Assembly (NCBI GenBank): GCA_963753985.1
Contig: CAVWED010000008.1
Coordinates: 82,545-146,544, forward strand
Origin: an uncultured Chloroflexia bacterium
GTDB lineage: Bacteria; Chloroflexota; Anaerolineae; Anaerolineales; Villigracilaceae
Reading direction: 5' to 3'
Length of the DNA: 64,000 bases
This document shows positions 3,427 through 61,413 of the stretch, one piece after another; position 1 is the first letter of the stretch, and each line of letters starts with the position of its first letter. The translations under genes and the position numbers were made by a program. The notes below the pieces were generated by a model that did no database searches, was not told where the DNA came from, and was given only the letters and a program-made list of their open reading frames with translations.

Positions 3427-3435
3427 TGGTTCACC

Positions 3436-6491: not shown

Positions 6492-7178
6492 CTAACCCTT
6501 TCCCTCCCGTGCTACTTTTTCCCTTGCTATCTTTTCTCGTTTTTCAATGGATTTATGTTTCAAGCCTTCGCGCCAAGTTCGCAAAGTCTCAATTACTTTT
6601 CTTTGAGAAACTGGATAACCCACTTTAAAGGGTTCCTTCCCCGCTCGTATATTCTCTTCACCATCTTTTATCGCTATCTCTATTTCATCATCTCTAATAC
6701 GTATTGCTTTCAGCAAGCCTTTTGCATGGTCAAGGCTAAAGGGATTGTACTTTTGTTCTGAACTTGTTGACCAAAACAAATAATCGCCCTGTGTCTTGAG
6801 CCGCGGCAATACTTTTCTAAGTTCTGCGTCGAACGCTATCGCTTCTCGTAAATGGCTTTCAAATTTGGCATTTATTCTTTTTGCTAGTTCAGCATAACTT
6901 ACCCCACCTTTGTTCATGTAATGCAACATTTCTAGAAACTGATTGTCACCCCCTCCTTGCCATGCACCTTGATACTCCATTACACGGTCACGCCATTCGC
7001 AAGCCAAAGGGATAGCAGATTGGATATTCCTTGCAGTAGAGTCTTCGCCAACTTCTATCATCACATGCAAGCGTCCATCTTGCTTTAGCAAGTGAATCAG
7101 AACGCCATTCTTTGATAAAAATAAATCGTCATTTTGGGCTGCGAATCCTATGCCAGGCATCTCATCATACATTTGCAC
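6492..7178 (-). CDS. hypothetical cargo protein next to integrase
   Basis: 228-aa ORF with its own terminator and a Lys/Glu-rich C-terminus. No recognisable domain. Confidence 0.5.
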   Translation of the reverse strand: MQMYDEMPGIGFAAQNDDLFLSKNGVLIHLLKQDGRLHVMIEVGEDSTARNIQSAIPLACEWRDRVMEYQGAWQGGGDNQFLEMLHYMNKGGVSYAELAKRINAKFESHLREAIAFDAELRKVLPRLKTQGDYLFWSTSSEQKYNPFSLDHAKGLLKAIRIRDDEIEIAIKDGEENIRAGKEPFKVGYPVSQRKVIETLRTWREGLKHKSIEKREKIAREKVAREGKG

Positions 7179-7283
7179 ATCCTTTGTTTGTCCGCCCGTG
7201 ACGTGCTAGAATAAGCGTCACCAAGTCGGTCTAGTCGGTTTGGTCATGCCCTGGGCGAGTCCACGCCGCAGGGCATTTTTATT

Positions 7284-8231
7284 TTACAACAAATTATCAG
7301 CCGGCGCAGCGCGGCGGTGGGCTTCTTCCGTATCTTGATTTGTCTGCTTTAAGTAACGTTGAAGTACTGCGATTCCTTCGTGCCCCATAAGTTTAGCGAG
7401 CGTGAAAATATCCGTGCCCGCGCGAAGCATCATCAAAGCAAACGCTCGGCGGAATGAATGCGCCGATGGTTCTTTGACCTTTGCAATTTTGGCAAGCCGG
7501 ACAAGGATCGCCCGCAAGCCGTCATAACCTAATCGCTCTGTGCCATAGCGGGGATGTGTAATCCACAAAGCAGGGTTATTGTCATGCCGATGGATTAAGT
7601 AACGTCTCAAAGCCCGCTTGCTTTGTTTGCCTATATAGACGGTTCGCGGTTTGTTCCCCTTGCCATGTCTTATCAGAATATCGCCACGAGCTTGATTAAC
7701 ATCACATAGATTTATATTCAAAAATTCAGTTGCCCGCGCTCCGGTATCCAACAAACAAAGCAGGATCGCCGCGTCACGGTCACCCGCAAAGGTATCACGC
7801 TTGCAGGCTCTTACCATTTGAGAAATGTCAGCAAGCGGGATCGGTTCTAATGGTTCTGTGGGGACTTTGGGCGCTTTGACTTTGCGAATGGGATTCACCC
7901 AGCCGGTCGGTTCGGTTTCGTCTTGATACCACAACAAAAAAGCGCGAATAGTTCTATAACCCGCATGTCTTCCGCCCGCATTGTGTCCCATCGTTTCCAT
8001 GACAAGCAGATAATCCCGCAATAGACTCGGCGTAATCTGTGAAATGCTTTTTACTGCTTGGGTTTCGCAGTAGTCAACAAAATAGCGAAGTTGAAATTCA
8101 TAAAAACGAATTGTGTTTTTTGACGTGCCGCGGGCTTTGCGGTCTACTAAAAATCCGTCAATCCATGTGAGCAAATAGTCATCAAGAATTGACGGAGTCA
8201 ACTGTGTCTCGTTTATTCTTTTGTCGGTCAT
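7284..8231 (-). CDS. tyrosine-type site-specific recombinase/integrase
   Basis: N-terminal SAM-like core-binding domain. Catalytic region LLDTGARATE...HSFRRAFALMMLRAGTDIFTLAKLMGHEGIAVLQRYL (R..HxxR..Y). Confidence 0.9.
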   Translation of the reverse strand: MTDKRINETQLTPSILDDYLLTWIDGFLVDRKARGTSKNTIRFYEFQLRYFVDYCETQAVKSISQITPSLLRDYLLVMETMGHNAGGRHAGYRTIRAFLLWYQDETEPTGWVNPIRKVKAPKVPTEPLEPIPLADISQMVRACKRDTFAGDRDAAILLCLLDTGARATEFLNINLCDVNQARGDILIRHGKGNKPRTVYIGKQSKRALRRYLIHRHDNNPALWITHPRYGTERLGYDGLRAILVRLAKIAKVKEPSAHSFRRAFALMMLRAGTDIFTLAKLMGHEGIAVLQRYLKQTNQDTEEAHRRAAPADNLL

Positions 8232-8240
8232 AGTGTCTTT

Positions 8241-8283
8241 CCGGCATGAGGACTTGAACGCGAAAGGGGTTTACACCGGTTGA
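8241..8283 (-). other. tRNA-Leu 3'-half-like remnant (possible att-site relic)
   Basis: Minus strand TCAACCGGTGTAAACCCCTTTCGCGTTCAAGTCCTCATGCCGG versus tRNA-Leu 8349-8393 TCAACCGGTGGAAACACCTTGAGGGTTCAAGTCCCTCTCGCCCCA. Two identical 10-nt blocks at identical spacing. The T-stem no longer pairs. Confidence 0.45.
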
Positions 8284-8309
8284 AATGGCGCGATATAATA
8301 CAATACCAT

Positions 8310-8393
8310 GGGGCGGTGGCGGAATCGGCAGACGCAGTTGACTTAAAATCAACCGGTGGAAACACCTTGAGGGTTCAAGTCCCTCTCGCCCCA
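8310..8393 (+). tRNA. tRNA-Leu (anticodon TAA), class II with long variable arm
   Basis: Hand-folded. Acceptor GGGGCGG/TCGCCCC, anticodon arm GTTGA-CTTAAAA-TCAAC, variable arm CGGTGGAAACACCTTG, T arm GAGGG-TTCAAGT-CCCTC, discriminator A. Confidence 0.9.
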
Positions 8394-8447: not shown

Positions 8448-9841
8448 GTGTAAAAACAACTTCCGTACTTTACCAATTCATTTTAGACGCAAACAGGAAG
8501 CAAGCGTGGTCGGATGGTGTAGTTCCAATTGGGGCAAGTTGAGTGCCTTTCCAAGTTCAGGCTTTGAATCACCTCATCCTCCACTTTGATGCCACGAGCA
8601 TAGACCTGATCCACTTGGAAGGCAGCTACTTGAAGTCCGGCTTGAGTGGTAGTGCCACGGATGTAGGCCAGCATCGTCTCCAAAGTCCGTAAAGGTTTGC
8701 CGGCCCAATTGAGGCTGACGGGGCCGAACAAACGATGTTCGATTGGATTCCACTTGGAGGCGTTTTTGGGATAATGGCAGATGATCACTTCCAAGCCTAG
8801 CCGGTCCGCCAACTGTTCTTGCACCTGGAGTTTCCACAGTCGCGAACGCCAGCCATTACTACCGCCGCCATCGCAAAGGATCAATAGACCCGGTGTACTG
8901 GGAAAATCGTACTGTCCAAAGGTCTGCCACCAGCGAGCGATCATATCGACTGCGAATTGGGCGGTGTCCGCGGATTGACTGACGTAGAGGTAGCCGCGAT
9001 TGTGGTTCAAGTCATAGATGCCGTAAGGAACGGCTTTGCAAATAGCCTCCGATTCAAAATCGTGGTCGTTGACTGCTTCGGCGGTTTGGCACCAACACCG
9101 TCCGGCGTTCTTAAAGTCGCCAATGAGCTCTTTTTTCTTGGCATCTACGCTGATCACGGGCCAGCCGCGGCTCAAAAAGAGCTGCTTTTGGGCATGGATG
9201 TACTCAAACTGCGTATTCCGATCCGGATGCTGTGCTCCCGCCAGCCGTTTGGAATTGACCTTGAGTGAGTAATTGGCCTTCTTCAACAGGCGCGCCACGG
9301 TCTTAGGACAGGCCGGATGTCCGCTGGCGTTCAGCTTTTTACTCAATTGGCGCAAGCTGCTGCGCACCCATTTCTGTGCGCTCATCGGATTGCCTGCTGT
9401 TTCGGGATCAATCATTTCATGCAATGTGGTTTCTATCTGCGGATCTTTTTTTCTACCGGAGGTCGTCCACCGCCCGCCGAACGCACCTGCTGCGTGGGCC
9501 GGGTAGCCAAACCTTGTTTCACCTCTTGTTGCCCACGCTCAATCGTCTTCTCGTCTATTCCAAAGATCTGCGACAGCAAGCGCACACCCCCATAACCCAG
9601 CCGGTTCGCTTCCACCGCCACATACCAGCGCCGCTGTTGCTCGTCCAACCGGCTTGCCAACAGGTTCATTTGCCGGTGGATCTCTTTATCCGGATGTTCT
9701 CCCGGTCCTTGACAATGTCCACATTGACAGACATGAACTGCTGAGATCGGCATGCGTTACTCCATTAGATCGTTTTATCTACCCTATATTCTAAATCGTC
9801 CTTTGCTCACAGACATTAAAAAACGGAACTTGTTTTTACAC
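8448..9841 (-). mobile_element. ISAzo13-family insertion sequence
   Basis: Terminal inverted repeats GTGTAAAAACAACTTCCGT (8448-8466) and ACGGAACTTGTTTTTACAC (9823-9841), 18/19 matching, enclose the transposase. Confidence 0.75.
8483..9753 (-). pseudogene. ISAzo13-type DDE transposase split into two frames at an A7 tract
   Basis: ORF 9433-9753 (CQCGHCQ...GGGRPPVEKK) and ORF 8483-9424 (DPETAGNPMSAQKWVRSSLRQL...DAKKKE...) join by a -1 shift at A-AAA-AAG (9445-9451). Confidence 0.75.
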
Positions 9842-11487: not shown

Positions 11488-11569
11488 ATATAGCGTGATC
11501 GAGTAGGGAGCGGCGGCTAGCCACTCCCTCTCACACCACCGTACATGCGGGGCCGCATACGGCGGTTCA

Positions 11570-12160
11570 TCAAGCAGAACGCAGTTCGTGATACCGTTCT
11601 TTGATGCTCTTCAGCCCTGAGTTATGCCAATAGGTATTGCTCAGGGCTTGATTTATCACAGGTGCGGCAGACATTCGCCAAGGACTTGTGCCTTTGGCTC
11701 CTTCTTGTGCCCATTGTTTTGGGACGCCCAGCTTCACTAATTCTCGATAGCGGGTTGTACTTCGTTTCCAGCGTTTCCAAATCAGTTGCCTCAATCGTCG
11801 TCGTATCCAACTGTCCAGCTCCTCAAATAGGCTCGGTGTGTCAGCCAGCCGGTAATATCCGATCCAACCGATGATATAACGGTTGATCTCTTCCAGGATC
11901 TGTTCCAGTGTGCCGCTCCGAGTGCGCTTGGTCAGGTTGCGTAGCTTTTCTATAAAGCGTTCCTTCGTTCGGTTCGCAATTCGGATTAGCACCATCCCTT
12001 TGCGCCTGAAGAAACTGAACCCAAGTATTTTCACCTTCCCCACTTTCTCAACCTTACTTTTCTTGGGATTGACTTTCAACTTCAGCTTCTTTTCCAGAAA
12101 CCCTTTCACGCTTTCCATTACTCGTTCACCCGCTCGCTGCGTTTTGACATAAATGTTGCG
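11570..12160 (-). CDS. group II intron A reverse transcriptase/maturase, C-terminal part (downstream of nested intron)
   Basis: (C)NIYVKTQRAGERVMESVKGFLEKKLKLKVN...YIIGWIGYYRLADT is the post-YADD finger/thumb (maturase X) region. Confidence 0.75.
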   Translation of the reverse strand, partial: RNIYVKTQRAGERVMESVKGFLEKKLKLKVNPKKSKVEKVGKVKILGFSFFRRKGMVLIRIANRTKERFIEKLRNLTKRTRSGTLEQILEEINRYIIGWIGYYRLADTPSLFEELDSWIRRRLRQLIWKRWKRSTTRYRELVKLGVPKQWAQEGAKGTSPWRMSAAPVINQALSNTYWHNSGLKSIKERYHELRSA

Positions 12161-14026
12161 GTGAGTGGCCCGAGGGAGTTTCACCCTCGGGCTCTCTCAG
12201 AACCGGACGTGAACCTCTCAGCTCATCCGGCTCCCGTTATCCAGCCGCAGGCAGTATGCCCATCTGCCAATGAACAAACAATTCGGGTAAATTCTTGGCC
12301 AGTCTCCCTATCCAATGAATTGCTCTGATTTTGTGCCGTGCTAACTTCTTGTATTTCCGCCGTGCCCAGAGAATCAGCGCATCGTTGATATGGCGTAACA
12401 CTGGATAGAGTTGCGATTTGTAGAAGCGGCCGTAATAATTGACCCAGCCTCTGATGATTGTATTAAACATCCTCGAAAGTTCATCGATCTCTTTGTCTGA
12501 TTTCAGTTGCAGGCGCCAACTTCGGATGGTTTGTCTCATGGCTTTGCACGCTTGATTGCTTACCGCTGGTGTAAAATTGATGAAATACTTTCCCCAGCGA
12601 TTCTTTGACCTCCTGGGCCGAAAGGTATAGCCCAGAAAGTCAAATGCCGTTACCGGGTAGTCCCCTTTTCGATCATCATCCTTGCAGTACACAATCCAGG
12701 TTTTCTCCGGGTGCATTTCTAATCCACACTGCTTCAACCGTTCTTCCAGCTTGATCCGTAAGGCTTCAGCTTCCGCTTTCGTTCGACAATGGATCACTGC
12801 ATCATCCGCATACCTTGCCCACGGATTGCGTACATTCTCTCTGCTCATCCATTGGTCAAACGCATAATGCATGAATAGATTCGCCAAGATCGGACTGATT
12901 ACCCCGCCTTGGGGTGTCCCAGCCGTTCGTTCAATCCTGGTTCCATCCTGCATCTGAAACGGCGCTTTCAGCCACCTTTCAATATAGAGTATCTCCCATG
13001 GACTGTTTGTATGTTTCCGCACCGCTTTCATTAACAGTTCATGGTCGATCCGGTCAAACAGTTTCTTGATATCAAATACCAGCACCCAGTCATAACGCCA
13101 GCATCTCTCACGCGTTTTTCCCACCGCTTCAATAGCTGACTTCCCTGGTCTGTATCCATAGGAGTCTGCCTGAAAGTAGGGTTCCACCTTCGGCTCAAAG
13201 TGCAGCTTGACCGTCATTTGCGCTACACGATCGGCTACGGTCGGTATCCCCAGGATTCTCGTCCCTCCGCTTTTCTTGGGTATTTCCACTGCCTTAACCG
13301 GCGGGGGAAAGTAACTCCCGGAAGACATCCGATTCCAAATCTTATACAGGTTGCCTTTGAGATCCTCTTCAAACTTTTCGATCGTTTCTTCATCAACCCC
13401 GGCTGCCCCTTTATTCGCTTTGACTCGCTTGTATGCCTCCCAGACCGTTTGCTTGGGAATATCATACGGCTTCGTTTTGTCCATGGCTCCTCCTACTTTT
13501 CAGTAGTTGACACATCTTCAAAACCAGATCACTCAACCTCTTCGCTCCTCCACCTTTTTCGTGGTTTCCTCGCTACTATAGGTTGATCCGCCCCTATACT
13601 CCGCATTTGTACTTTCATCCTGACGGGGTTTCCGCTTGGATTTTTCCATTCGCATCGGAGTCGTAGGTTCCCACGTTCCGTACTAAAGCCTGTGTGATGT
13701 TCACGCCGCCTTCATGCCGGTCACCGTCTGGTCAGTAATCAGGTTCCTTCCAGACTTATCCCAAGTCAACAACTCTACCTGGTTTTGATGGCTTCCCTAC
13801 GCTTTCGACACTTTATCAGCGATTCACTTGTGTTCGTCTCCATCACACTTACCTGACAGAGTCTTCGCTCTGCCTTTTCCGTAACGCTCACGACCGTGGC
13901 TTTTGTCCACTGCCGCTTACGGCGGTTTGAAGCCTCCACCTGCATGGCGGCTCCGAGGGGCCCGCCCTCATCTCTCGTACAGTTCGGCTCTGCCTCCTCC
14001 TTTCTCTATGAGTCTTCGTGGCGCAC
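12161..14026 (-). mobile_element. group II intron B nested inside the RT gene of intron A
   Basis: Starts GTGCGCCACGAAG at 14026 immediately after the YADD codons. Domain V GAGCCGGATGAGCTGAGAGGTTCACGTCCGGTTC (12200-12233). Domain VI-like stem, ends ...GGGCCACTCAC(C) at 12161/12160. Confidence 0.75.
12237..13484 (-). CDS. group II intron B reverse transcriptase/maturase (intact, no endonuclease domain)
   Basis: 415 aa. GAAGVDEETIEKF...RILGIPTVADRVAQ...YGYRPGKSA...PQGGVISPILANLFM...YADDAVIHC...RGWVNYYGRFY. Confidence 0.9.
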   Translation of the reverse strand: MDKTKPYDIPKQTVWEAYKRVKANKGAAGVDEETIEKFEEDLKGNLYKIWNRMSSGSYFPPPVKAVEIPKKSGGTRILGIPTVADRVAQMTVKLHFEPKVEPYFQADSYGYRPGKSAIEAVGKTRERCWRYDWVLVFDIKKLFDRIDHELLMKAVRKHTNSPWEILYIERWLKAPFQMQDGTRIERTAGTPQGGVISPILANLFMHYAFDQWMSRENVRNPWARYADDAVIHCRTKAEAEALRIKLEERLKQCGLEMHPEKTWIVYCKDDDRKGDYPVTAFDFLGYTFRPRRSKNRWGKYFINFTPAVSNQACKAMRQTIRSWRLQLKSDKEIDELSRMFNTIIRGWVNYYGRFYKSQLYPVLRHINDALILWARRKYKKLARHKIRAIHWIGRLAKNLPELFVHWQMGILPAAG

Positions 14027-14723
14027 AGTCATCGGCATAGCGCACAAACTTGTGCCCGCGCTTTTCCAGTTCTTTATCTAGATCGTCCAGCATGATATTG
14101 GAAAGTAACGGCGAGAGTGGGCCACCTTGCGGCACGCCTTCTTCTGCATCCATTACTACTCCATTTATCATCACTCCCGATTCCAGATAGGCTCGGATCA
14201 GCTTGAGCACTCGTTTGTCTTTCACCACCCGTGCCACGCGGGCCATCAGCATATCGTGGTTCACTCGATCAAAGTATTTCTCCAGATCGATATCCACACA
14301 CCATTCGTATCCTTCTTGCACATACGTTTGGGCTTGCCTCACAGCTCCATGCGCACTGCGGCCGGGTCGGAACCCGTAACTGTGTTCCGAAAAGAGCGGT
14401 TCGAATAACGAAACCAACACCTGCGATATCGCTTGTTGGAGAAAGCGATCTAGTACATTCGGTATCCCTAACTGCCTGACCCCGCCATCGGGTTTGGCAA
14501 TCTCAACCCGTCTGACTGGGTTCGGCCGATAGACCCCGCTTTCGAGAGCTGCCCTGGTCTCCAACCAATGTTCCTTCAGGTATGGACGAAGTTCTTTCGC
14601 CATCATCCCATCGATGCCTGGCGCCCCGCCGTTGCTCTCTACTCGCTTCATCGCTATGAGCAAGTTCTGTCTTTCCCAAATCTTTTCCCATAGCCCTGCG
14701 TCGGATGTTCGCTCGTCTCGCAT
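14027..14723 (-). CDS. group II intron A reverse transcriptase, N-terminal part (ends at YADD)
   Basis: MRDERTSDAGLWEKIWERQNLLIAMKRVESNGGAPGIDGM...RQLGIPNVLDRFLQQA...YGFRPGRSAH...PQGGPLSPLLSNIML...FVRYADD, then runs into intron B. Confidence 0.8.
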
Positions 14724-15278
14724 TGTGGACGGCTCGGCCCTCGGTTCCAATCCCGTCGGCTTCACCGACTTCGCTGGCTCCGCAGTATCCCTATCCGGGA
14801 GAGGCTGCCTTCTGTGTTCATCCTGCGAAGTGACTGCTCCTTTCAGTCGCAAGCTGCTCAAGTTACTACTCCGCTTTGATGTTCGGCCCTTCCCACCCGA
14901 TGGCGGTGGTACTTCGGCCTCGGCTGATTGGTATCCTGTGTTCTCTCAGGACCCCTGCCAATTCAGCCTGATTTCTCAATCAGGGTTCCCAGTTTTCCGG
15001 TCTAATGGCAGGTCTCCCCAGATAAGAACGTTGACTTTCTCTGCATCCCTGTCCCATTTACTGCTTCGGCCTTTGACTGCATCGGGCTTCGTTGTCGTTT
15101 GCCAACTCGCCCGGCCTCACAGCCTCTTATAGGTTTCTTGTTCATCAGGTCGCAGATTTGCCTCCGGCTTCCTCCAGACCCCACCTCACAGTGACGCCCT
15201 TGCCTTCAGCTAACAGTTGGCGCAATCAGCCTCTGTCAGAGTCTTTCACTCCTTAGTCAACACCCATGCTGGGCGTAC

Positions 15279-28407: not shown

Positions 28408-29122
28408 CTATTTCTTAAATATACCCATGATTTGATTTATCGTACCTGAAAGACAGCCGGGTGAAGGGTTCGGCGTCGGAGTTGGTGTAGGCTGTGGAGT
28501 GGGAGTTGGCAGTGGTGTGGCTTGCCCGATCTTATTGCCGAGATACTTCGTGTTAATCCATAGACTACCGTCAAAACCTTTTGAAGTGTTAAATCCACCG
28601 CTAAAGTAAGGAACAAAGAATAATTGGCCGTTAGCTGATAAACGATTCCCCACCCGCCAGAGTGTAAGCTGCGCCTCCATAGCCGTTCTGATATAGAAAG
28701 TCCACTGTCAAAGCACTGTAATCATCCATCATCGGGATTCCGGCCAACTTGGCATATTCCCCTAAATAATCATCAACCGCAAAATGGTTACGCGGGTACA
28801 TGGCTGGACTGCCACTTGCCATCACTGCAATCGGCCATTTGACATGATAAGCCGAGTTGGGGCTTGATTGAACAATACCATACAGCGTGACACCTATCGT
28901 ATTACGTATCGAGGCCCATGACCACAACGCGCTATTGTCCACAGGCTGGCCGCCAATTTCACCATTTAGAGACAACAAGAATTTGACTGTCGGCTCATCT
29001 GGCGTTCCCAAATCCACCCAGGTTGTAGTCCCACCATTGAGCAAAGGAAACGAATTCGAATGTTCCTGGGACAGAAACGCCGGCTTCGGTCCAGGATAAG
29101 GCTTCGTAAAGATCAGGGATCA
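28408..29122 (-). pseudogene. tail-bearing paralogue copy 1 (two frameshifts)
   Basis: Collinear with copy 2. A 1-nt insertion near 29050 and an extra G near 28655 break the frame. Ends PTPNPSPGCLSGTINQIMGIFKK*. Confidence 0.7.
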
Positions 29123-29357
29123 TGGTTTCACCTCTTGATTATCATATTTTGCGGAACGGTAAGAGGAACTGAAATTGGAGCTACGTACGCACCGTTTGTT
29201 CTAGCCGATAAGCTGCTGTCTTTTTTAGAAAAGCATTAGGCAGGCCAAGTTACTTATGAACCTTCAATTAAATTCTATTTCCTAAATAGACTCATGATCT
29301 GGTTCATTGCACCTGAAATACAACCGGATGAAGAGTTCGGAGTTGGTGTGGGTTGTT

Positions 29358-29429
29358 GGGGTTGGGGTTGGGGTTGGGGTTGGGGTTGGGGTTGGGGTTG
29401 GGGTTGGGGTTGGGGTTGGGGTTGGGGTT
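29358..29429. repeat. (GGGGTT)x12 hexanucleotide microsatellite inside the linker-coding region
   Basis: Counted directly: 12 perfect units. Encodes (PT)n, (PQ)n or (PN)n depending on frame. Confidence 0.95.
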
Positions 29430-29483
29430 GGCACCGGCATTGGAGTTGGCACCGGCGTTGGAGTTGGCACCGGCGTTGGAGTT
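29430..29483. repeat. 18-nt tandem repeat x3 (GGCACCGGCRTTGGAGTT)
   Basis: Three consecutive units at 29430, 29448 and 29466. Absent from copy 1. Confidence 0.9.
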
Positions 29484-30381
29484 GGTGTAGGCTGTGGAGT
29501 GGGAGTTGGCAGTGGTGTGGCTTGCCCGATCTTATTGCCGAGATACTTCTTGCTAATCCATAGACTACCGTCAAAACCTTTTGAAGTGTTAAATCCACCG
29601 CTAAAGTAAGGAACAAAGAATAATTGGCCGTTAGCTGATAAACGATTCCCATCCGCCAGAGTGTAAACCGCGCCTCCATAGCCGTTCTGATATAGAAAGT
29701 CCACTGTCAAAGCACTGTAATCATCCATCATCGGGATTCCGGCCAACTTGGCATAATCCTCTGAATAATCATCTACCGCAATATAGTTACGCGGGTACAT
29801 GGCTGGACTGCCACTTGCTATCGCTGCAATCGGCCATTTGACATGATAAGCCGAGTTGGGGCTTGATTGAACAATACCATACAGCGTGACACCTATCGTA
29901 TTACGTATCGAGGCCCATGACCACAACGCGCTATTGTCCACAGGTTGACCGCCAATTTCACCATTTAGAGACAACAAGAATTTGACTGTCGGCTCATCTG
30001 GCGTTCCCAAATCCACCCAGGTTGTAGTCCCACCATTGAGAAACGGAAACACATCAAATGTTCCAGAGACAGAAACGCCGGCTTCGGTCCAGGATAAGGC
30101 TTCGTAAAGATCAGGGATCATGGTTTCACCTCTTGATTATCATATTTTGCGGAACGGTAAGAGGAACTGAAATTGGAGCTATGTACGCACGCTTGTTCCA
30201 TTTGGCACACTCGAATTATACGATATATTTCTGAATGCAGGCGACATCCGTTGCGTTTACTTGAACACTGCCCAAATATGAAGCCAGTAGGCTCCACGAA
30301 TTGGCCAAATTTCCGAGCATAGAAATCTTCCTCAAATCTTGACGTCACAGAATGCGTGTTCTATAATGGCGCAGTACTTAT

Positions 30382-32013
30382 TTACCGTCGTACTACGGGC
30401 ACAACAGGTGCTTGAGGTTGATGAGCAAAGGCTAATGCAAGCGGTGGCGGTGCAGTGCCCACTCGCTGCGAAGTGACTGCTCCTTTCAGTCGAAGCTGGA
30501 CAAGATAATCCAAGATCGGAATGGAATGTTGATGGCAGGTTACCAACACACTCGACAAGATCGCATGGGTCTCCGCTCCCGGCTTAGTGCGGTTACATCC
30601 ATTGGTTTTCCGAGTAATCACCGCCGGTCGGATCATGGTTCTGCGGTACGAAACCACCTTGCGTTCCACTTGGTTGTTGGTGGCATCCGAGCCGTCCATG
30701 TACAGGAAGCGCAACAGGTGAGGACGGTGCTTCCTCAAACGCTTGGCAAAGCGGGCATTGTCAGGATCGGTAAAGTGACGTCGATCGGCAATCAAAGCAT
30801 CAAGGCGAGTTTCCAAACTTCGGGCTCGATTGGCAAAGGTGAAAGGATCCAAGTGTGGTTTCTCGGCCTTCAAGTGCAAGGCGTCTTGCAACAAGGCGGT
30901 CATCTGCCGCGCAAACTCCAGCGCTCGACCTGTTTTGCTCTCACGCATGTCTTTCAAGTCTGTCAGCAAATGACCGATACATTTCTGTTTCAGCCAGTCT
31001 TTCAAACGCCGATCGTCATAAGCCAGGAAACCATCACTAGCCAAGATCCCTTTGAACTTCTCACCCAGAATATCGATCACGACGTCGCTCGAGCGGTTGG
31101 CGCGAATATCGTAAACCGTAATCTCGTGATCGGTAAAGACCCAACGCCCTGCGCCCTTCCAGGGGAGCCAGGCCGACAGCGTTCCAATTCTCTAACCCGT
31201 TTCATCTGCGTGCACCACACTGCATTGGCGAATCAACTCAATCAATCGTTCATATATCGGTCGGGCTGTGCGGGCCAGTTTTTGATCTGCGCGACACCAA
31301 CCACTACGACAAACCTGCAAGCCGAAACTATCGTTCAAGACTTCACTCACTGCCTGCACTGTGCTCTTCAGTGTGCCGTACGAGACACCCAAGCGATGCT
31401 TCAGATCAGTGGCCAAAGCCTTGGCGCGCGGGCCGACCACCACCGCTCCTGCAGTTCCGGTCGCCTCCGAGATCTGATCCGGATGCCACGATCGCACTCG
31501 TTTCTGGCAATGGCTGCAGTAGCCGCTGTAGGTCAGAAAACGCGTGACCACCGGCTGCACTTTTGGAAGATCGATCTCAAATTGCTCATGGCGATGCCTC
31601 TGGCGCAATTTGCCGCCGCAGTCCGGGCAACATGGCAATTCGGCTACCTTCGTCTCGCTCACTTCCTTCAGTCTCGGTTTGGCTCGCTATACAAAACGGC
31701 CTTTCCCAGCTTTGCGCCCCGGCCGCTTGGGAAAGTGGTTGGTACTTTGACCATGCTCTACCCAGTGCCCTCGAGCAAACGGTGCCGCTTGCCGCTTCCC
31801 GGCCCGCTTCAATTCTTCCACCTCAGATTGCAAAAGTTCCACCTGCTTTTGCAGTCTCTCGTTCTGTTTTCGCAACTGCTCATTCTCCCCTTGCAGCCTC
31901 TCATTGCTCGCCAACACCTGCCCCAGTTGTTGTTCCAGTTTTGTGATCCGTTGTTCGTTGGCATCCGACAACGTTTGTTTATTACTTCTTTGAACCATGC
32001 GACCAGTGTACAA
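30382..32013 (-). pseudogene. IS66-family transposase interrupted by two in-frame TAG codons
   Basis: Leucine-zipper N-terminus, zinc-finger CPDCGG...CSHCQ, HADETG*R, DDE region ...NNQVERK...RKTNGCNRTKPGAE. TAG at 31687-31689 and 31192-31194, all pieces in one frame. Confidence 0.8.
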
Positions 32014-37073: not shown

Positions 37074-37116
37074 AAGTTTTGCTTCAAGGATAACCAATTA
37101 CTAGAAGGAGATTTCT

Positions 37117-37548
37117 ATGAACCCAAAGAAGGAAACGCAAAAGTCCAAAGGATTCACGGACGAGGAAAAAGCCGCGATGAAGGCCCGTGCCCAAGAGCTG
37201 AAGGCGGAGGCCAACAAAGCGGAAGGTGAGAGCGCCGCGCTCGAGGCAATTGCCAAGATGCAGGAGCCGGACCGCACCATAGCCAAGCGGCTTCACACTA
37301 TCATCAAGGCCGTCGGCCTCTCTGCCAAAACATGGTACGGGATGCCCGCATATGCCAACAGGGACGGCAAGATCATCTGCTACTTCCGCGACCGGCTGAA
37401 GTTCAAAGAGAGATACGCGATGTTCGGCTTCAACAACTCAGCTAAATTGGACGAAGGCTCCATGTGGCCGATTGCCTACGCTCTGCCGGAGTTGACCTCC
37501 GAGGATGAGGCAAGGATCGCCGCTCGCGTAAAGAAAGCGGTAAGCTGA
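37117..37548 (+). CDS. DUF1801 (YdhG-like) domain protein
   Basis: ...TWYGMPAYANRDGKIICYFRDRLKFKERYAMFGF... Confidence 0.65.
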   Translation: MNPKKETQKSKGFTDEEKAAMKARAQELKAEANKAEGESAALEAIAKMQEPDRTIAKRLHTIIKAVGLSAKTWYGMPAYANRDGKIICYFRDRLKFKERYAMFGFNNSAKLDEGSMWPIAYALPELTSEDEARIAARVKKAVS

Positions 37549-38992: not shown

Positions 38993-39448
38993 GTTTAGGC
39001 GCTCCTTTTCATAGAGAGGCCGAAAGTCCTCTTTATGGGGAAGAGGTTCATAGGCGGCAAAGAGCCGTGCAAAGAGTCGTGGATGATGTGGAGCCACCGT
39101 GGACGTACTGTGGGGCTACCGTGGAGCTTGGGCAGGCAAACAAGCCAAAACTAAACCAAAATAGAGATAGTTCCACCGCCATGATATAGGATGGATATAG
39201 GATCGTTATGGGACGGTTATAGGATCAGCGAAGGGTGAGCGGGATGGCTACCCGCACTATCTACCGAATCATTATTTTTTGTGGCGCTTCTATCGACTCC
39301 TGTGAATCGCGGCGGGCTTCGCCGCGCTCCAGGATCAAGTCTGGCGCATCGGCCTGATGAGATATTCAAGCCGCAAAGAAAACATCATGTTATTTCTCGC
39401 AGCGCTAAGAGAGTTGTTGAAAAGAAACGATTCGCGATAGCTGCAAGC

Positions 39449-40978
39449 CGACAACGGATCGGGTAGGATACAAATGTCGGTAAGAAGCGCCAACGGATCG
39501 TGCACAGGAATGGCGGCGGCAACCGCCAGAATTGGCGCGATTAATTGACGGTTACTTGATCAAGAATTTGTAGGGCCAGCGTTTGAAAATGCGACCTTTG
39601 AGGTAGATGGTCAGATAGGCGTGGGCCGTATCCAAGACTGCTTTAACGTATTGTCCTTTGAGCCGTTTGCCGATCCAGAAGGTTTGGCTGAGGAAGTAAA
39701 CGTTGCCGTGTCGGGTGACCATGCGAATAAAGGTGACTCGGCCCGCGGCGATGGGCAGCAACTCGGTTGGAACGATAAACGGTGCGGGGAGTAGCTGCAA
39801 TTTGAGTCGTCTGCGAAATTGATTGGGGGTCAGGCCGCCGAGGCGCCGATGAACATGTTGAGTGGTGACCACCTCTTGCAATCGTTGCAATTCGCGCTTC
39901 AACTGAGCAGGCCGAGAATATCGTCGTTGGAGCAAATGCACCTGAAACCAGCCGTTGAAATTCTCAACCGCCCCATTGTACTGAGGCCGGTGGGGCGGAA
40001 TGAAGATGGGTTCGATGCCAAAGCGCAAACAAAGGCGAATGACCCGCGAGAGATAGCGGGCGGCGGGTCCCCAGCCCACGAGTTCGCGTCCATTGTCGAA
40101 TTGAACTTGGGTGGGCCGACCCAGGTTCTTCCAACATTCGCCCAGGAACTGCAGAATGTGGTCCATTTTGCGGGAACGGCTCAATCGCAGGCAAACGGCA
40201 CCGTCGAAGACATCTTTGCGAAAAGACTACTCCTTTCAGTCGCAAACCAGGATGTAATAGCGTTGATGCTTGCCTTTGAGGTAGAGGGGGCCCACGGAAT
40301 CGACGTGATGGAGCTCATTCGAGGTGTGGGCAGTGGGTGCCGAGTAAGTGGTGGCAGATACCCAACGAGCTAGCCGAACGCGCGGTAAGGTGATCCCCTG
40401 CCGTTGCAGGACGCGTTCAATCGTCCGCTCGCTGGGTAAAGGCTGGATGTGCAAGGCTTGCAGTTCGGCTAGAATAGCAGAAGCCCCGATGAGGTTGTAT
40501 CGTGCCCCGGGATGCAGACGCGCCTCTAGTCGCCGACGGACGGTTAAGATAGTGCGTTCCAACTCGGGAGGCATCCGGCGAGCCACTTGGTGTGCCGCAT
40601 GGGTCATGTCGAACAACCCATCGGGGCCAAATTCCAGATAACGATTCCACCATTTGTGGAACCAGCGGCGCGAACGGTGCAAAGTACTACATAGTTGCGG
40701 AATAGATTCTCCCGCCAGCCGCAGTTCGATGGCGCGGTGGCGGTCGGAAAATTCGTCGTTCAAGGTGGTTCTGTTCTTTTGAACCATAGAAATCTCCAGT
40801 AGAATGAATCTGACGGTTGCCGTTGGAGGTCACTTTATTGCAAAACTAAGCTGAAAATATGCGAAACCCCCGTTCAATGTCAGTTCTCACCGCCATCTCC
40901 GTGCACGATCCGTTGGCGGTTTGTACGGCGTCAATGTGCATGATCAGTTGTCGCTAAACTGTGCACGATCCGTTGTCG
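39449..40978 (-). mobile_element. IS with rve-type (IS481/IS3-superfamily-like) transposase and reiterated 18-nt subterminal repeats
   Basis: GTGCACGATCCGTTG(G/T)CG-like repeat three times at the right end (40901, 40936, 40961) and twice inverted at the left end (39449, 39489). Confidence 0.65.
39552..40787 (-). pseudogene. rve-domain DDE transposase interrupted by a 24-nt stop-containing insertion
   Basis: HTH N-terminus, HHVDSVGPLYLKGKHQRYYILVC-[D*KE*SFR]-KDVFDGAVCLRLS...VQFDNGRELVG...HRPQYNGAVENFN. A single frame throughout. Confidence 0.75.
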
Positions 40979-41197
40979 GTCCGCAGATAGCATAGTAGGT
41001 AAATAATCAAATTATGAGATTGCAACCTCATTGGGGCTGATAAATTGCATAGCGATAAACGTAAGGCCTCCCATTATTCCAGTCTATTCGACCCACTGGA
41101 ATATTCAAATTCCTACATAAATCTTTCAAAGACAATTCGTTTTCCCTAGGAAAATCAGCTCCAACGATCACTGCTTTTATCGCATTATGTATTGGTA

Positions 41198-43388: not shown

Positions 43389-44258
43389 TAGAGCGTGTTA
43401 TGAACTTTCATAGGAGATGAGCCATAAGATGAACGAAGTTCTTGGCCATCATAATGGCGAAAGCCAGGTAGCTGAGGCCGGCGAGTGTTTCGGGCAAGCG
43501 TTCGTAATCGCGCGCCAAGCGGCGGAAACGAGCCATCCAACCGAAACTCCGTTCGACGACCCAGCGCCGCGGCAGGAGCACGAAACCTTTTTTGGCTTCG
43601 GGCAGCTTGACCACGAGCAACTGCAAGCCCTGATCTTGAGCCGCTTGGGCCGGCTCATCGCCGGTAGAACCTTGATCGACAAAGGCGACCTCCACCGAAT
43701 TTCCGGTAACCTCTTGCACCTGTCGTGCCAATTCTCCGACCTGCGCTCGGTCCTGCTCGTTGGCCGGGGTGATGTGCAAAGCCAGCAAATGACCCAAGGT
43801 GTCCACCGCCACATGGGTTTTGCTCCCTTTTTTGCGCTTGGCACCATCGGATCCAGCGCGCGAACCGCTTTCCACGGTCGATTGCAATGTTCGGCTGTCA
43901 AAAATCGCCGCACTCGGGGTTTCCTTTCTTCCTTTGGCCAATCGCAGCAGGGCTCGCAGATCATTCACCATGGCTTCAAACACGCCAGCCCGGATCCAGC
44001 GCTGCGATTGTTGATAGACCGTATACCAAGGTGGCAGGTCGGTGGGCAAAAAACGCCATGGCGCTCCCGCACGCACCATCCAACGCAAGCCGTTGAAGGC
44101 CTCCCGCAGACTGTACTATCGTTGTGGCGCTTCTTCTTTCATCAAGGTCAGGTAAGGGCTATGAAGGCCCATTCGTCATCCGTCACATCACTTGGATATC
44201 TTTGCTTTTCCATGCCCGGAGTCTATCATCCCCTAGCCAAAGTGCATAACACGCTCTA
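43389..44258 (-). mobile_element. IS5-family IS inserted near the end of the ISKra4 element
   Basis: Inverted repeats TAGAGCGTGTTATGAACTT (43389-43407) and AAGTGCATAACACGCTCTA (44240-44258), 18/19 matching. Confidence 0.75.
43408..44213 (-). pseudogene. IS5-family DDE transposase (frameshift in a C-run plus in-frame TAG)
   Basis: MEKQRYPSDVTDDEWAFIA(P)YLTLMKEEAPQR*YSLREAFNGLRWMVRAGAPWRFLP...DQGSTG...VVERSFGW. TAG at 44116-44118. Confidence 0.75.
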
Positions 44259-45679
44259 GTCAGCCAAGGGTAGAGCGGCATAGAATGGCTTCAAAGAATC
44301 CCAAGAGTGGCTTAGCCAAGCGGCTCTGGCTTTAGCGGTTGCGATGACACCGGGCAGGGTCCAACGTGCGCCGGAACGTTTGAGACGCACTGCGGCAATT
44401 TGTTTGCAAGCGCTTTCGATGGTACCACTGTCAATCAGGTAACCGCATTATCGAAAGCGTGCATAGTCCATACGTTTCTCATTATGATCATAATAGGTGA
44501 CTGCTTTTTCGATGAAGGGCCGCGCAGAAACATGGGATAGCAAACTACGACAGGATTGGATGACATCCTGAATGCGTCCTTTCCAAAGTTCGGTGCGAGC
44601 TTGGTTTAGCCATTCGTGAGCTTGCGGAGTGTTGGCTCCGAAGGCGGCTTCCGCAATGGCGGTGAGATATTCGCTGGCGTGAAACCAATGGTAGGAAGCG
44701 CACCTACCACTTTCCACGATCTGAACCGCATTCGGAAAATACTTTTGCGCCAGATTCCAAATCCACGCGGCACCGTCCCCCAGAAAGACGATTTCTTCGT
44801 AGGCGTCCACTTGATGGTGGATGCCAGTGGCCCACAGCAGTTTTCCAAATTGTTCGGCTTCCTGGATGTCGCAATAGTATTTCATATTTCTGGCTTGCAG
44901 GTGGCGTTGCTCTCCGATGCGCGCCCCGTGGTGGTTCGGTATCGCAGAACCATGATGATTTTGGGCTCGAGAAGGGTGAATCGCCTCCACTTCATACCAA
45001 CAGAGGGTCTTCGACTGAAAGTCGCAGTCATTTCGCAGCTCCTGCCATTCCCCGTGCAAAGGAACATGTACGCCATCCAGCGAAGCGTAAACCCGCCCCG
45101 CACGCTTTCCCAAACTCTGCTCCCGTACCTCCAAGCGTTTCACATCGTCCGCAGTTTGCTTCCATTCTTGTTCTATTTGAGCTTGCGCCTGTCCATAGCC
45201 TTCCGTATGTTTGCGCACGGTATTGTCGCTCACCTAGAATAAGAGCAACCGCTCCGCCAACTGACTGGCCTCTTCAAACGATGTCTCCACGCCCAAGATC
45301 CCCAGCAAACTCGTCAGTCCCGGCGTGCTCTGCCTAGGCACCAATCTCAATCGCTCGTCCAGAGGCGACTGCCCCGATGACAATGCGGACACCAATAATA
45401 TCTCCGCCGGTAAGTCACTTTTCCAAACACACTCCACACCATCCCTTCTCGCTTTCCCCACGGCTCTGCCTCCTGCCCACACGAACAGGCAATCGGAACA
45501 GGGTATTTTTCTTTCCTCCCTTCAATCACTTTCTGCAGACCGATCCCTGAAGCTTCTTTCGCCAATGCTCTCATCGTTTGTTCAATCTCACCGATCTGCA
45601 CTCTCTCCTCCATTTTCTCTCGCACCTCTTGCGCCATTAATTCTGCTATCTTTGTCTTCATTCCTATGCTAAACTCCAT
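44256..45679 (-). pseudogene. ISKra4-family transposase (one frameshift, in-frame TAG and TAA, possible 24-nt insertion)
   Basis: CSCG...CPHCHRG / SPLDERLRL...ERLLLF*VSDNTVRKHTE...GDGAAWIWNL...QIV[ESGRCASYH]WFHASEYL...YARFR*CGYLIDSGTIESACK... Confidence 0.7.
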
Positions 45680-45846: not shown

Positions 45847-45919
45847 GCCGAGATAGCTCAGTTGGTAGAGCACGCGACTGAAAATCGCGGTGTCCACAGT
45901 TCGATTCTGTGTCTCGGCA
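45847..45919 (+). tRNA. tRNA-Phe (GAA)
   Basis: Hand-folded. GCCGAGA/TCTCGGC acceptor, GCTC-AGTTGGTA-GAGC, CGCGA-CTGAAAA-TCGCG, CACAG-TTCGATT-CTGTG. Confidence 0.9.
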
Positions 45920-45945
45920 CACTCGGTCAGGAAGAAAGACCGAAT

Positions 45946-46017
45946 GCGGGCGTAGTACAGCGGTAGTACGTCTCCTTGCCAAGGAGAAGGTCGTGGGTTC
46001 GAATCCCATCGCCCGCT
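45946..46017 (+). tRNA. tRNA-Gly (GCC)
   Basis: GCGGGCG/CGCCCGC acceptor, anticodon arm TCTCC-TTGCCAA-GGAGA, T loop TTCGAAT. Confidence 0.9.
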
Positions 46018-46021
46018 CTGG

Positions 46022-46053
46022 ATGAGGATTGCCAACCAGCAATCCTCATTTTA
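46022..46053 (+). terminator. intrinsic terminator after tRNA-Gly
   Basis: ATGAGGATTGC-caacca-GCAATCCTCAT followed by TTTT. Confidence 0.75.
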
Positions 46054-46069
46054 TAATATAGACGAACAT

Positions 46070-46140
46070 GGCGTCGTGGCCAAGTGGTAAGGCAAGGGTC
46101 TGCAAAACCCTCATCAGGGGTCCGAATCCCCTCGACGCCT
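46070..46140 (+). tRNA. tRNA-Cys (GCA)
   Basis: GGCGTCG/CGACGCC acceptor, anticodon arm AGGGT-CTGCAAA-ACCCT, T arm AGGGG-TCCGAAT-CCCCT. Confidence 0.9.
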
Positions 46141-48489: not shown

Positions 48490-48993
48490 ATGCAAGAGCC
48501 TGTCTTAGTGCTCAACGCAAACTTTGAACCGATCAATGTTTGCACAACGCGACGAGCCATCGGATTGATGCTGGGGGGCAAAGCTGCGATGGTGGCAAAC
48601 GGCCGCGGGTATATCCGAACAGTCAAAGAATTGATTCCACGGCCTTCAGTCATTCGCTTGGATGTGCAAATTCATCGGCCGCGCCCGCGTATCAAGCTCA
48701 CGCGCCGCGAAGTCTTTCGCCGTGACAATTATACCTGTCAGTACTGCGGTCGGCGCGATCGAGGCTTGACTGTCGATCATGTAATCCCCAGACATCTAGG
48801 CGGTCCGCATACCTGGACGAATGTTGTGGCGGCCTGCCCTTCTTGCAACCACCACAAAGGCGGACGTCGACTCGAAGAAGCACATATGAGTCTTTTCCAC
48901 GCTCCAAAAGAACCCCCGGCCAATGCCGCCTACATCTTCGGACGGCATCTGGCCGAAAACGAAGAGTGGGCACAGTATATCAAAGGGTGGTAA
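48490..48993 (+). CDS. HNH endonuclease
   Basis: CQYCGRRDRGLTVDHVIPRHLGGPHTWTNVVAACPSCNHHKGGR. Confidence 0.85.
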   Translation: MQEPVLVLNANFEPINVCTTRRAIGLMLGGKAAMVANGRGYIRTVKELIPRPSVIRLDVQIHRPRPRIKLTRREVFRRDNYTCQYCGRRDRGLTVDHVIPRHLGGPHTWTNVVAACPSCNHHKGGRRLEEAHMSLFHAPKEPPANAAYIFGRHLAENEEWAQYIKGW

Positions 48994-60430: not shown

Positions 60431-61267
60431 TTACAACTGGCGTAGAACGCCGCGAATCAGTTTCTCCATCTTCGGCGTGATGAGCTTGCCAGCCTCCATC
60501 ACTTCCTCATGGCTGGTGACCGTCGAGCCATCCAGATTCGCTTTGTTGCTGATGCCGGAAAGACCAAGAACACGCATCCCGCCGTGGCGGGCAACGATCA
60601 CTTCGGGGACAGTTGACATACCCACCGAGTCTGCTCCCACAAGACGCAGGAACCGCAAGTCCGCAGGCAATTCAAAAGACGGGCCGCTCAATCCAGCATA
60701 GACCCCTTCGTGCAATTTGATATTTTCTTTTGTCGCTACGTTTCGCGTCAGATCACAAAGCGCGCGATCATAAGCTTAACTCATATCGGGAAACCGCGGT
60801 CCAAGTTCATCAAGGTTTGGACCAATTAGCGGATTTTGTCCGGTCATGCCGACCAAGTTCAAGTTGTCGGTAATTAACATTACATCGCCTGGTACAAAGG
60901 CAGGATTAACTCCGCCTGCCGCGTTGGTCACAATAAGAATTTCAATTCCCAATCGCTGCATGACACGCACTGGCAAACTCACTTGTGCCATGCTATATCC
61001 TTCATAAAAATAAATCCGCCCTTGCATGACAAACATGGTTTGCCGTTCCAGTGTACCGATGACCAAACGGCCGGCGTGTCCCAACACCGTTGAAATCGGA
61101 AAATGCGGGAGGTCGCCGAACGGGATCAGATCGGGCTTTTCAACGGACTCCGCTAAACGGTTCAGGCCGGAACCGAGGATGATCGAAACACGCGGCCGAT
61201 ACGAGGTCCGTGCCTGAATCGCTTTAACAACCTCATCAATTTGTTCAAGGGAAAAATATGGAATCAT
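60431..61267 (-). pseudogene. punA: purine nucleoside phosphorylase (PNP/MTAP family) with one in-frame TAA
   Basis: IILGSGLN...VMQGRIYFYEGY...VTNAAGGVNP...GPRFPDMS*AYDRAL...GPSFELPAD...GADSVGMSTVPE. TAA at 60776-60778, same frame on both sides. Confidence 0.8.
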
Positions 61268-61413
61268 TAATTGAGCCTGTTCTAAAGTTTGGATCTCCCG
61301 AGCAGAACCAGCTCCCCTCCAAAAGTCCTGCACGCGCTGATTATATCAGAAATCACAAGCAGATAAACATTTTTCTAGGTTCAAAAAGGTAGAAAAAAAC
61401 GGCCTATTATGCT

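Follow-up and report, generated by a model that had tools for sequence, protein, structure and literature searches.

SDR-like mini-inserts of 21 or 24 nt in mobile elements of an Anaerolineales genome

The window analysed here, a stretch of 64,000 nt from a metagenome-assembled genome (MAG) of an Anaerolineales bacterium (Ffh protein MFZ1039836.1 / MGA7608024.1), contains at positions 40219–40242 of the minus strand a 24-nt hairpin-forming segment that lies inside an rve (DDE) transposase gene and interrupts its reading frame. We interpret this 24-mer, with a probability of about 0.7, as a mobile mini-insert that resembles the small dispersed repeats (SDRs) of Nostoc in its behaviour and that disrupted its gene. 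The family to which it belongs, named F1, is an ultra-small dispersed repeat added as an exact 24-nt unit, without duplication, at sites reading YTN|CAR (the vertical bar marks the insertion point). A single disrupted transposase gene is ordinary, and the point of note would be the seamless, site-directed movement of 24 nt in a second phylum.

The insert, its family and its empty sites

According to a reading of the window made without database searches (hereafter the sequence-only reading), the transposase frame runs from 40787 to 39552 and is broken only by a TGA and a TAG codon, both within the 24-mer. This description was confirmed: the TGA at 40238–40236 and the TAG at 40229–40227 are the sole stops between the ATG at 40787 and the natural TAA at 39552, and both are supplied by the insert, which lies in the sense frame C GAC TGA AAG GAG TAG. 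Removal of exactly these 24 nt, which had been said to restore the frame, indeed leaves an uninterrupted open reading frame (ORF) of 403 codons, reading ...YYILVCKDVFDGA... at the junction and ...YYILVCKDVFDGAVCLRLS... in the stretch around it; the flanking context in the window is GTTTGC-[24 nt]-AAAGATGTC. The repaired transposase was searched against 5.8 billion proteins, which returned thousands of rve/helix-turn-helix (HTH) transposases with Pfam domains PF00665/PF13683/PF13384. The best 120 of these were aligned (66–87% identity, nearly all 394–396 amino acids long); none has a residue in the eight columns of the insert and all read VC|KD at the insert point. At the nucleotide level, the closest homologues show TTGGTCT|GCAAGGATG where the window has CTGGTTTG[24 nt]CAAAGATG. 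A second mini-insert, F2-like and placed at the start of the gene, accounts for the eight extra N-terminal codons of the window gene with respect to homologues of 394–395 amino acids. The site of this F2-like insert has a counterpart nearby: the ribosome-binding site and start region of the gene at 37117 (37107–37130, plus strand, GGAGATTTCTATGAACCCAAAGAA) is 83% identical to the start region of the rve insertion sequence (IS) at 40774–40797 (minus strand, GGAGATTTCTATGGTTCAAAAGAA).

The 7-bp inverted repeat TTTGCGA/TCGCAAA noticed around the 24-mer is present, and it is composed of the palindromic target TTTG|CAAA together with the CGA...TCG ends of the element itself. In its genomic context the hairpin reaches -7.3 kcal/mol (z = -3.6); the minimum free energy fold of the 40219 copy taken alone (-2.2 kcal/mol) has a pairing that differs from the 5-bp/7-nt hairpin of the family. 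The three positions at which this copy departs from the family all have T, the change in the stem preserving a G·U pair, and the remaining 1,212 nt of the rve ORF carry no disabling mutation. We infer that the transposase has been knocked out, or at best strongly attenuated, with a predicted truncated product of 183 residues, which would make this copy of the IS a pseudogene.

The F1 consensus, CGACTGAAAGGAGCAGTCACTTCG, is laid out as a 5-bp stem (GACTG/CAGTC) closing a 7-nt loop and followed by a 6-nt tail, ACTTCG; on its own, the consensus hairpin is weak (-2.9 kcal/mol, z = -1.1). The window contains three matches to the 24-mer with at most three mismatches, against 0.00 expected by chance, in agreement with the near-identical copies that the sequence-only reading had listed, and a fourth copy that it had missed, at 45012–45035 on the plus strand, belongs to the variant F1b, with the loop AAAGTCG (GTC loop variant). 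The coordinates given for one of the listed copies, 30479–30502, have to be corrected to 30469–30492. Both listed copies had been placed inside mobile-element ORFs: both do lie in mobile elements, but the one at 14826–14849 is in domain IV of a group II intron, where it occupies non-coding sequence upstream of the reverse transcriptase (RT) ORF and not a true ORF. The copies had further been described as sharing the strand of their host genes, a rule that fails since the copy at 45012–45035 is antisense; overall, about eight copies are sense and six antisense with respect to the host gene. An origin by insertion at the RNA level into host transcripts was considered and rejected, as the occurrence of both orientations argues against it.

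The family is not confined to the window, where the sequence-only reading had suggested that the motif be counted elsewhere. When one genome per species was searched with the 18-nt core of F1, 20 matches came up. Seven of them, all in Chloroflexota MAGs, extend over the whole 24 nt; the remaining 13, which belong to unrelated phyla and in which the 3' part is missing, were dismissed as chance matches. In JGI metagenome assemblies, a degenerate 24-nt F1 pattern matched 38 loci, for the most part in peat and soil samples, and no F1 copy was present in the viral contigs scanned. Altogether, F1 was found in dozens of independent JGI, ENA and NCBI assemblies, and the 50 pattern matches, window included, reduce to 27 independent sites with unrelated flanks, at which conservation ends exactly at the 24-nt borders. 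In what follows, numbers beginning with L designate F1-bearing or empty-site loci or contigs; the related DNA that was compared amounts to 383 kb in total.

Uninterrupted copies of the host, another check that had been proposed, were found for the rve IS, the outer group II intron and an IS66 element. These three independent filled/empty pairs each show a gain of exactly 24 nt without target duplication, and they bear out the option of a mini palindromic insertion element, one of several that had been put forward. In the IS66 pair, the filled L033 and the six empty contigs L064–L069 differ by 0–2 internal positions in about 1,620 nt; L069 shows no internal difference from L033 over this length besides the 24 nt, the flanks beside the insert are not co-converted, and the L033 protein, once RLKGAVTS is removed, matches database entry P0137 exactly. 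In the intron pair, the homologues L070/L071 are about 90% identical to the window and empty. As this site lies in domain IV, which is non-coding, selection on the reading frame is not enough to explain the length of 24 nt. Two registers of the insert fit all three pairs, 0 (CGACTG...TTCG) or +1 (GACTG...TTCGC), and neither yields a duplication. A target-site duplication of CG or CTTCG was rejected: CG does not occur in the rve empty site, and the periods are incompatible with it as well. The intron itself belongs to a twintron (11498–15195, minus strand), in which a second group II intron lies within the RT ORF of the outer one.

Target sites and related mini-inserts

The 27 sites define a sharp target: Y at position -3 (24/27), T at -2 (23/27), C at +1 (21/27), A at +2 (24/27) and R at +3 (27/27). 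The consensus is thus the quasi-palindrome YTN|CAR, represented in the rve IS by TTTG|CAAA, and several sites are centres of longer palindromes, such as TTTG|CAAA, GTAGTTA|CAACTAC and, in a terminator-like hairpin, CACGTTT|CAAACGTG. The element may itself encode some of its target preference: in an exploratory, post hoc comparison, C occupies position -1 in 7 of 9 F1b sites and in 4 of 18 F1 sites (Fisher p = 0.011).

Insertion at the same place appears to recur. Among the IS66 protein clusters, 117 of 120 are empty, and each of the three F1-filled clusters has empty nearest relatives. The rve-like transposases of L010 and L029 are saturated at synonymous sites (proportions of synonymous and nonsynonymous differences pS 0.75–0.86 and pN 0.21–0.33), yet they carry an identical F1 (24/24) at the same codon. 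A neutral passenger could not have remained unchanged over such a time, which points to independent recent hits or to continual homogenisation. Both of these loci hold F1 in the frame that contains TGA (D*KEQSLR; L010, 7599–7622), as do L041 and L036/L046/L056, with open frames of 60–290 codons on both sides, and one copy in this frame, the second in L003, reads TGG instead (DWKEQSLR). Such continuity is to be expected shortly after insertion, since 24 nt leave the reading frame unchanged, and it is no proof of expression. A dN/dS comparison was not decisive as to whether the TGA-frame copies are functional, synonymous sites being saturated and the inserts looking independent, and it was discarded.

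In most cases F1 merely adds eight residues to its host (RLKGAVTS, RSDCSFQS and EVTAPFS are examples). Four of its six frames are free of stops; a C at position 19 opens a fifth, and a G at position 7 turns the TGA into TGG. With insert lengths that are multiples of three and most frames stop-free, most copies would just add 7–8 residues and travel with an IS that still works. The hosts identified by Pfam comprise IS3 orfA and orfB, IS481-like, rve_3, ISAs1-like, IS110, IS630, IS66 and ISKra4 transposases, along with the group II intron. The non-mobile sites are a gene for an S-adenosylmethionine (SAM)-dependent methyltransferase, an intergenic position in an ABC-transporter operon, a terminator-like hairpin and the flank of a tRNA-Leu gene.

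F1 is accompanied by other mini-inserts. In about 10 kb of mobile-element DNA, the window contains 12 of them, from at least seven families (named F1–F7), all 21 or 24 nt long (Table 1): F1, F2, F6 and F7 measure 24 nt, and F3, F4 and F5 measure 21 nt. Comparison of the window IS66 with four metagenome homologues revealed four clean inserts besides F1 (F5, F4, F3 and F2). In the ISKra4 element, the F1b, F2 and F6 inserts (8 amino acids each) are absent from 20 of 20 protein-database homologues, and the metagenome copy L038 shares F1b only; the register of F2 in this element is ambiguous, either 44927–44950 or 44937–44960. F1, F3, F4 and F7 have a common form, NNCTG, a purine-rich loop of 7–8 nt, CAGNN and a tail of 3–7 nt, in which the outer two base pairs covary (GA/TC, CC/GG, CA/TG and TC/GA). 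An unbiased scan of the window for NNCTG-loop-CAGNN hairpins found eight, six of which are mini-inserts, with about 3.6 expected by chance. By inspection, a 3' tail CACTT or CACCTT is common to F1, F2, F5 and F6. A blind short-BLAST search for further multi-copy mini-families recovered only F1 and F3, because the loci had been chosen on F1. The matches at the Rfam gathering threshold were limited to tRNAs and parts of group II introns. An origin of the 5-bp/7-nt hairpin from a tRNA anticodon arm or T-arm was also rejected, since no U33/purine-37 pattern was visible by eye.

The families also nest: F1 sits in the loop of F2 at four loci (L019, L024, L039 and L057). At L019/L024 (7750–7850 of L024, minus strand), a cluster F3-F2(F1) lies 3 nt after the 3' end of the tRNA-Leu gene, so inserts are also found between genes and side by side. 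At L039/L057, F2(F1) would add about 16 in-frame residues to the SAM-dependent methyltransferase (Pfam Methyltrans_SAM), the clearest case in a gene that is not mobile.

Alternative explanations, known systems and possible mechanism

One alternative, which we consider unlikely, requires no dedicated enzyme: template switching, or gene conversion over a very short tract, would copy the unit from existing copies, primed by micro-homology between YTN|CAR and the donor junctions (typically CTT|CGAC...TTCG|CAG), and selection would keep the in-frame lengths. Donor copies are indeed mostly flanked by CTT and CAG, which gives 3 nt of micro-homology on both sides; the left flank often resembles the 3' end of the element (CACTT|CG...CACTTCG in L036, CACTTC|CG in L008), in F2 the similarity runs on into one flank or the other, depending on the copy, and the lengths of all seven families are multiples of three, as ORF selection would give. 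However, the borders are the same at the 27 sites, including the non-consensus TTA|TAG, ACA|CAA and CTG|GCG, the unit is exactly 24 nt in non-coding contexts too, adjacent flanks are not co-converted, and a homology of 3 nt is very short for repeated precise events at one codon of genes with saturated synonymous divergence.

It is far less probable that the 40219 copy is a recoding signal, in which translation would take off at the GAC before the UGA, skip 24 nt and land on GAU, or read through the UGA, so that some transposase would be made; the sequence-only reading had mentioned a bypass hairpin together with a regulatory one, and no positive evidence was found for either. The sequence GAC|UGAAAGGAGUAGUCUUUUCGCAAA|GAU places GAC-UGA in the 5' arm of the stem and an in-frame GAU directly after the insert, the 24-nt gap contains neither GAC nor GAU, and its 3' part is U-rich. 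Gene-60-type cassettes use Asp GAC/GAU pairs and sometimes UGA stops (bioRxiv 10.1101/2022.08.31.505936). The changes to T with a retained G·U pair fit this explanation, as do the long open frames around the other TGA-frame copies (L010/L029, L041, L036/46/56) and the intact state of the other 1,212 nt of the ORF, which would be unexpected if three changes in 24 nt were neutral decay. Yet the continuity of the frame is automatic after a 24-nt insertion, a matched landing codon is missing from the other TGA-frame copies, one of them carries TGG (DWKEQSLR), and the inserts of L010/L029 look like independent recent hits rather than a conserved recoding site. A bypass product would moreover lose the conserved Lys of the KD motif. 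The bypass cassettes of T4 gene 60 and the byps of Magnusiomyces mitochondria are likewise short hairpin-forming inserts in coding sequence, but the GAC-UGA/GAU features (matched codons, a stop after the take-off codon, take-off in the 5' arm of the stem) are confined to the 40219 copy and are not those of the F1 family. Even there, the Shine–Dalgarno (SD)-like GGAG lies 15 nt upstream of the landing GAU, not 5–7 nt before it as the mini-SD of gene 60 does; cassettes of that type also involve a nascent-peptide signal and a protein product that spans the gap.

The footprint of an excised larger transposon, an option raised in the sequence-only reading, or the fused ends of an internally deleted miniature inverted-repeat transposable element (MITE), is extremely improbable. 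The 3-nt inverted ends CGA...TCG and the internal inverted repeat would suit it, and all window copies are in transposon-rich DNA; against it stand the occurrence of the same 24 nt at 27 unrelated sites in many host genes, the lack of duplication in the three filled/empty pairs and the existence of seven unrelated families in one size class, and the 383 kb of related DNA contain no solo left end and no longer element that starts with CGACTGAAAG and ends with GCAGTCACTTCG. An assembly or sequencing artefact, also put forward earlier and suggested only by the oddity of the sequence, has a negligible probability, since the same IS with the identical 24 nt is found in the source contig, GCA_049580765.1 and GCA_049279135.1 (1600/1600 nt identical) and the family occurs in dozens of independent assemblies.

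The interpretation of F1 as a mobile mini-insert can be compared with what is known of other small repeats. Mobile DNA of less than about 50 nt has hardly been documented, the SDRs of Nostoc (2008) being the sole described case that we know of, with an unsolved mechanism. Elhai and colleagues are reported to have described in 2008 eight SDR families (SDR1–8) of Nostoc punctiforme and other Nostocaceae, 21–27 nt long, some judged mobile, with hairpin potential and nesting. They provide the nearest precedent, SDR4–6 in particular, and the sequence-only reading, which could assign the 24-mer to no known class of element, had overlooked it. The likeness extends to the size class (here 21/24 nt, in several families), the dispersed families, the hairpins, the nesting, the presence or absence of the insert among near-identical copies (L033 against L064–L069) and the exact placement of the insert at a fixed point within a short palindrome. 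The target itself differs, being YTN|CAR here: SDR5 is described as inserting precisely between nucleotides 3 and 4 of the HIP1 palindrome GCGATCGC (PMC4390886; PMC5861425). A cyanobacterial origin or a link with HIP1 was examined and rejected, as GCGATCGC shows no enrichment in this stretch, with 2 sites where 2.7 are expected. The present inserts also differ in their occurrence in Chloroflexota, in hosts that are mostly transposase genes and an intron, and in lengths that are all multiples of three; SDR-like repeats are reported to be absent outside Nostocaceae (PMC5861425). Because the host is an Anaerolineales and the likeness is one of behaviour, we file the inserts as SDR-like and not as members of the SDRs.

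Other systems are more distant. Repetitive extragenic palindromic (REP) sequences are characterised in PMC3733652 as short (20–40 bp) hairpin repeats with a conserved GTAG or CGTC tag, and they are thought to be mobilised in trans by a Y1 HUH enzyme, RAYT/TnpA-REP (PMC3116915; PMC6006769). REPs and REPINs resemble the mini-inserts as short hairpins without coding capacity or target duplication, but REPs are extragenic with longer stems, whereas F1 and its relatives are largely intragenic, most F1 copies being inside ORFs, with stems of 4–6 bp; F1 ends in CGAC.../...TTCG with the shared tail CACTT, and has no GTAG or CGTC. A crude regular-expression search for HUH motifs showed no RAYT gene, which REPs typically flank, in the 383 kb. 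IS200/IS605 and IS91/Helitron elements share with F1 the seamless insertion beside a short specific sequence and the repeated use of a site, and they depend on a subterminal hairpin, as F1 may do. IS200/IS605 insertion is also biased in orientation with respect to the replication fork, whereas the F1 copies sit in ISs that themselves move. The elements of these groups, however, measure several hundred nt at the least, carry two distinct hairpin ends and encode TnpA, while here one hairpin of 21–24 nt would serve as both ends, and no TnpA was found in the 383 kb by the same crude motif search. Rickettsia palindromic elements (RPEs) are selfish palindromic repeats that insert in frame into coding genes, adding a peptide and keeping the host ORF (PMC10969869). 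They are in-frame selfish DNA like F1, but with about 100–150 bp they are 5–6 times larger, and they reside in housekeeping genes of an obligate intracellular alphaproteobacterium, where the 24-nt F1 is mostly in mobile-element genes. MITEs, finally, are non-autonomous, repeated and structured as the mini-inserts are; they reach about 500 bp, with terminal inverted repeats of 4–30 bp and flanking target duplications (PMC10969869), and F1 has only the 3-nt CGA/TCG ends, shows no duplication in three pairs and is much shorter.

As to the mechanism, the mini-inserts would not be autonomous but would depend on an enzyme acting in trans, which would recognise the foot of the hairpin and cut and rejoin single strands. 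HUH nucleases (IS200/IS605 TnpA, RAYT and IS91/Helitron-type enzymes) are known to combine hairpin recognition with single-strand transfer, and in IS608 and ISDra2 the choice of the target depends on the sequence of the element. The best candidate for the mover would thus be a HUH (Y1/Y2) nuclease of IS200/IS605, RAYT or IS91/Helitron type, an assignment that is possible but that we regard as doubtful. The element may help to choose its own target, as in IS608. The 40219 copy lies in the only sense frame that contains GAC TGA, and the transposase would have been lost as a result.

Several observations weigh against mobility of this kind. The crude HUH motif search, which covered only the 383 kb of related DNA, yielded no candidate gene there; each hairpin alone is weak (-1 to -4 kcal/mol), and no IS200/IS605 end pair so far characterised is as small as a single 24-nt hairpin. 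With 18 of 24 positions fixed by the search pattern, conservation within the element is partly imposed and the contrast between 1.3% mismatches in F1 and 13% in the flanks has to be discounted. A relaxed search of the same loci brought out just two further copies outside this pattern, with one mismatch each, as well as one 5-mismatch match that is probably due to chance, and no clearly decayed copies. In the 40219 copy, three mismatches in 24 nt next to 1,212 intact nt would be compatible with a donor that already differed or with selection still acting on the ORF. The enrichment in ISs and introns could be purely selective and not mechanistic, because mobile DNA is dispensable and frame-keeping inserts hitch-hike with an IS within and between genomes. 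The distribution among relatives, lastly, fits precise excision as well as recurrent insertion; either of them would be a seamless, sequence-directed reaction.

We tentatively propose, with the odds somewhat against so broad a statement, that Anaerolineales and related Chloroflexota harbour a currently active system of the smallest known mobile DNAs, in which at least seven families of single-hairpin units of 21/24 nt would home seamlessly and repeatedly to quasi-palindromes, with targeting that is in part self-encoded, as hyperparasites of ISs and introns that ride between genomes and are moved by a hairpin-specific strand-transfer enzyme. If true, this would be a second, independent and experimentally tractable example beside the long-unexplained cyanobacterial SDRs. 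SDR-type behaviour is now described in another phylum, with a clean filled/empty allele, a sharp target logo, repeated hits at one codon, covarying hairpin families and nesting, and this evidence makes the mechanism testable by phylogenetic profiling and oligonucleotide assays. In-frame additions of 7–8 residues, or stops, may pass for sequencing errors, for pseudogenes or for protein loops particular to a lineage, and mini-inserts may be a hidden source of transposase variation and inactivation. Should the choice of the target be encoded by the element, a minimal programmable inserter might be conceivable.

Features of the window

Table 1. Positions of the mini-inserts, of their hosts and of other features in the window (F, family of mini-inserts; D5/D6, intron domains 5 and 6)
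Feature	Position	Strand	Remarks
F1 mini-insert	40219–40242	-	CGACTGAAAGGAGTAGTCTTTTCG; 3 mismatches to the family consensus
rve (DDE) transposase gene, host of the former	39552–40787	-	N-terminal HTH domains; 403 codons without the 24 nt, otherwise uninterrupted
Host IS, approximate extent	39438–40989	-	Imperfect terminal inverted repeats 39438–39528 and 40878–40989; ends alignable with L061–L063
F2-like mini-insert in the rve IS, 24 nt	40761–40784	-	GTTCAAAAGAACAGAACCACCTTG; directly after the ATG; absent from L061–L063
F1 copy	14826–14849	-	Consensus sequence; non-coding domain IV, outer group II intron of the twintron; empty site GAGCAGCTT|GCAGGATG in L070/L071
F7, 24 nt	14928–14951	-	TCCTGAGAGAACACAGGATACCAA; same outer group II intron as the F1 copy
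F1 copy	30469–30492	-	C-terminal part of IS66 transposase; open frame RLKGAVTS; empty site CCAGCTT|CAGCGAG in L064–L069
F2, 24 nt	30638–30661	-	CAAGGTGGTTTCGTACCGCAGAAC; IS66
F3, 21 nt	31144–31164	-	CCCTGGAAGGGCGCAGGGCGT; IS66; borders unambiguous, no target duplication
F4, 21 nt	31353–31373	-	CACTGAAGAGCACAGTGCAGG; IS66
F5, 21 nt	31733–31753	-	TGGTCAAAGTACCAACCACTT; IS66
F6, 24 nt	44690–44713	-	AAAGTGGTAGGTGCGCTTCCTACC; ISKra4
F2, 24 nt	44927–44960	-	ISKra4; register ambiguous
F1b copy, loop GTC	45012–45035	+	CGACTGAAAGTCGCAGTCATTTCG; antisense in ISKra4-like transposase; encodes RNDCDFQS
Inner group II intron		-	5' part 13851–13969; RT 12237–13484; D5/D6 12160–12235
Outer group II intron		-	5' part 14886–15195; RT fragments 13968–14720 and 11570–12184; D5/D6 11498–11567
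Tyrosine integrase (integrative-like block)	7284–8231
AAA_25 protein (integrative-like block)	4669–5730
CHC2 zinc-finger primase-like protein (integrative-like block)	3436–4443
ISAzo13-family IS	8448–9841		Directly beyond the tRNA gene 8310–8393

Outside the mini-inserts, a block resembling an integrative element (about 3400–8393) adjoins the tRNA gene at 8310–8393. A tandem duplication of about 1 kb (28471–30190), with copies 93–98% identical, affects a gene that ends in Pro-Thr and Pro-Gln low-complexity runs. A stand-alone HNH endonuclease gene (48490–48993, plus strand, 167 amino acids) showed no link with the mini-inserts. The same holds for a purine nucleoside phosphorylase gene (60431–61333, minus strand) with a single in-frame TAA at 60776–60778 (...RFPDMS*AYDRAL...) in an otherwise continuous frame. 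The residue expected at this position is presumably Asp, given the motif RFPDMSDAYD of the family, and the TAA could reflect a pseudogene, a sequencing error or recoding. An IS5-family element with 20-nt terminal inverted repeats lies directly next to the ISKra4 copy, and three clustered tRNA genes follow just beyond (43389–44258 and 45847–46140 for these features). With the rve IS added, the region is a mobile-element hotspot around ffh.

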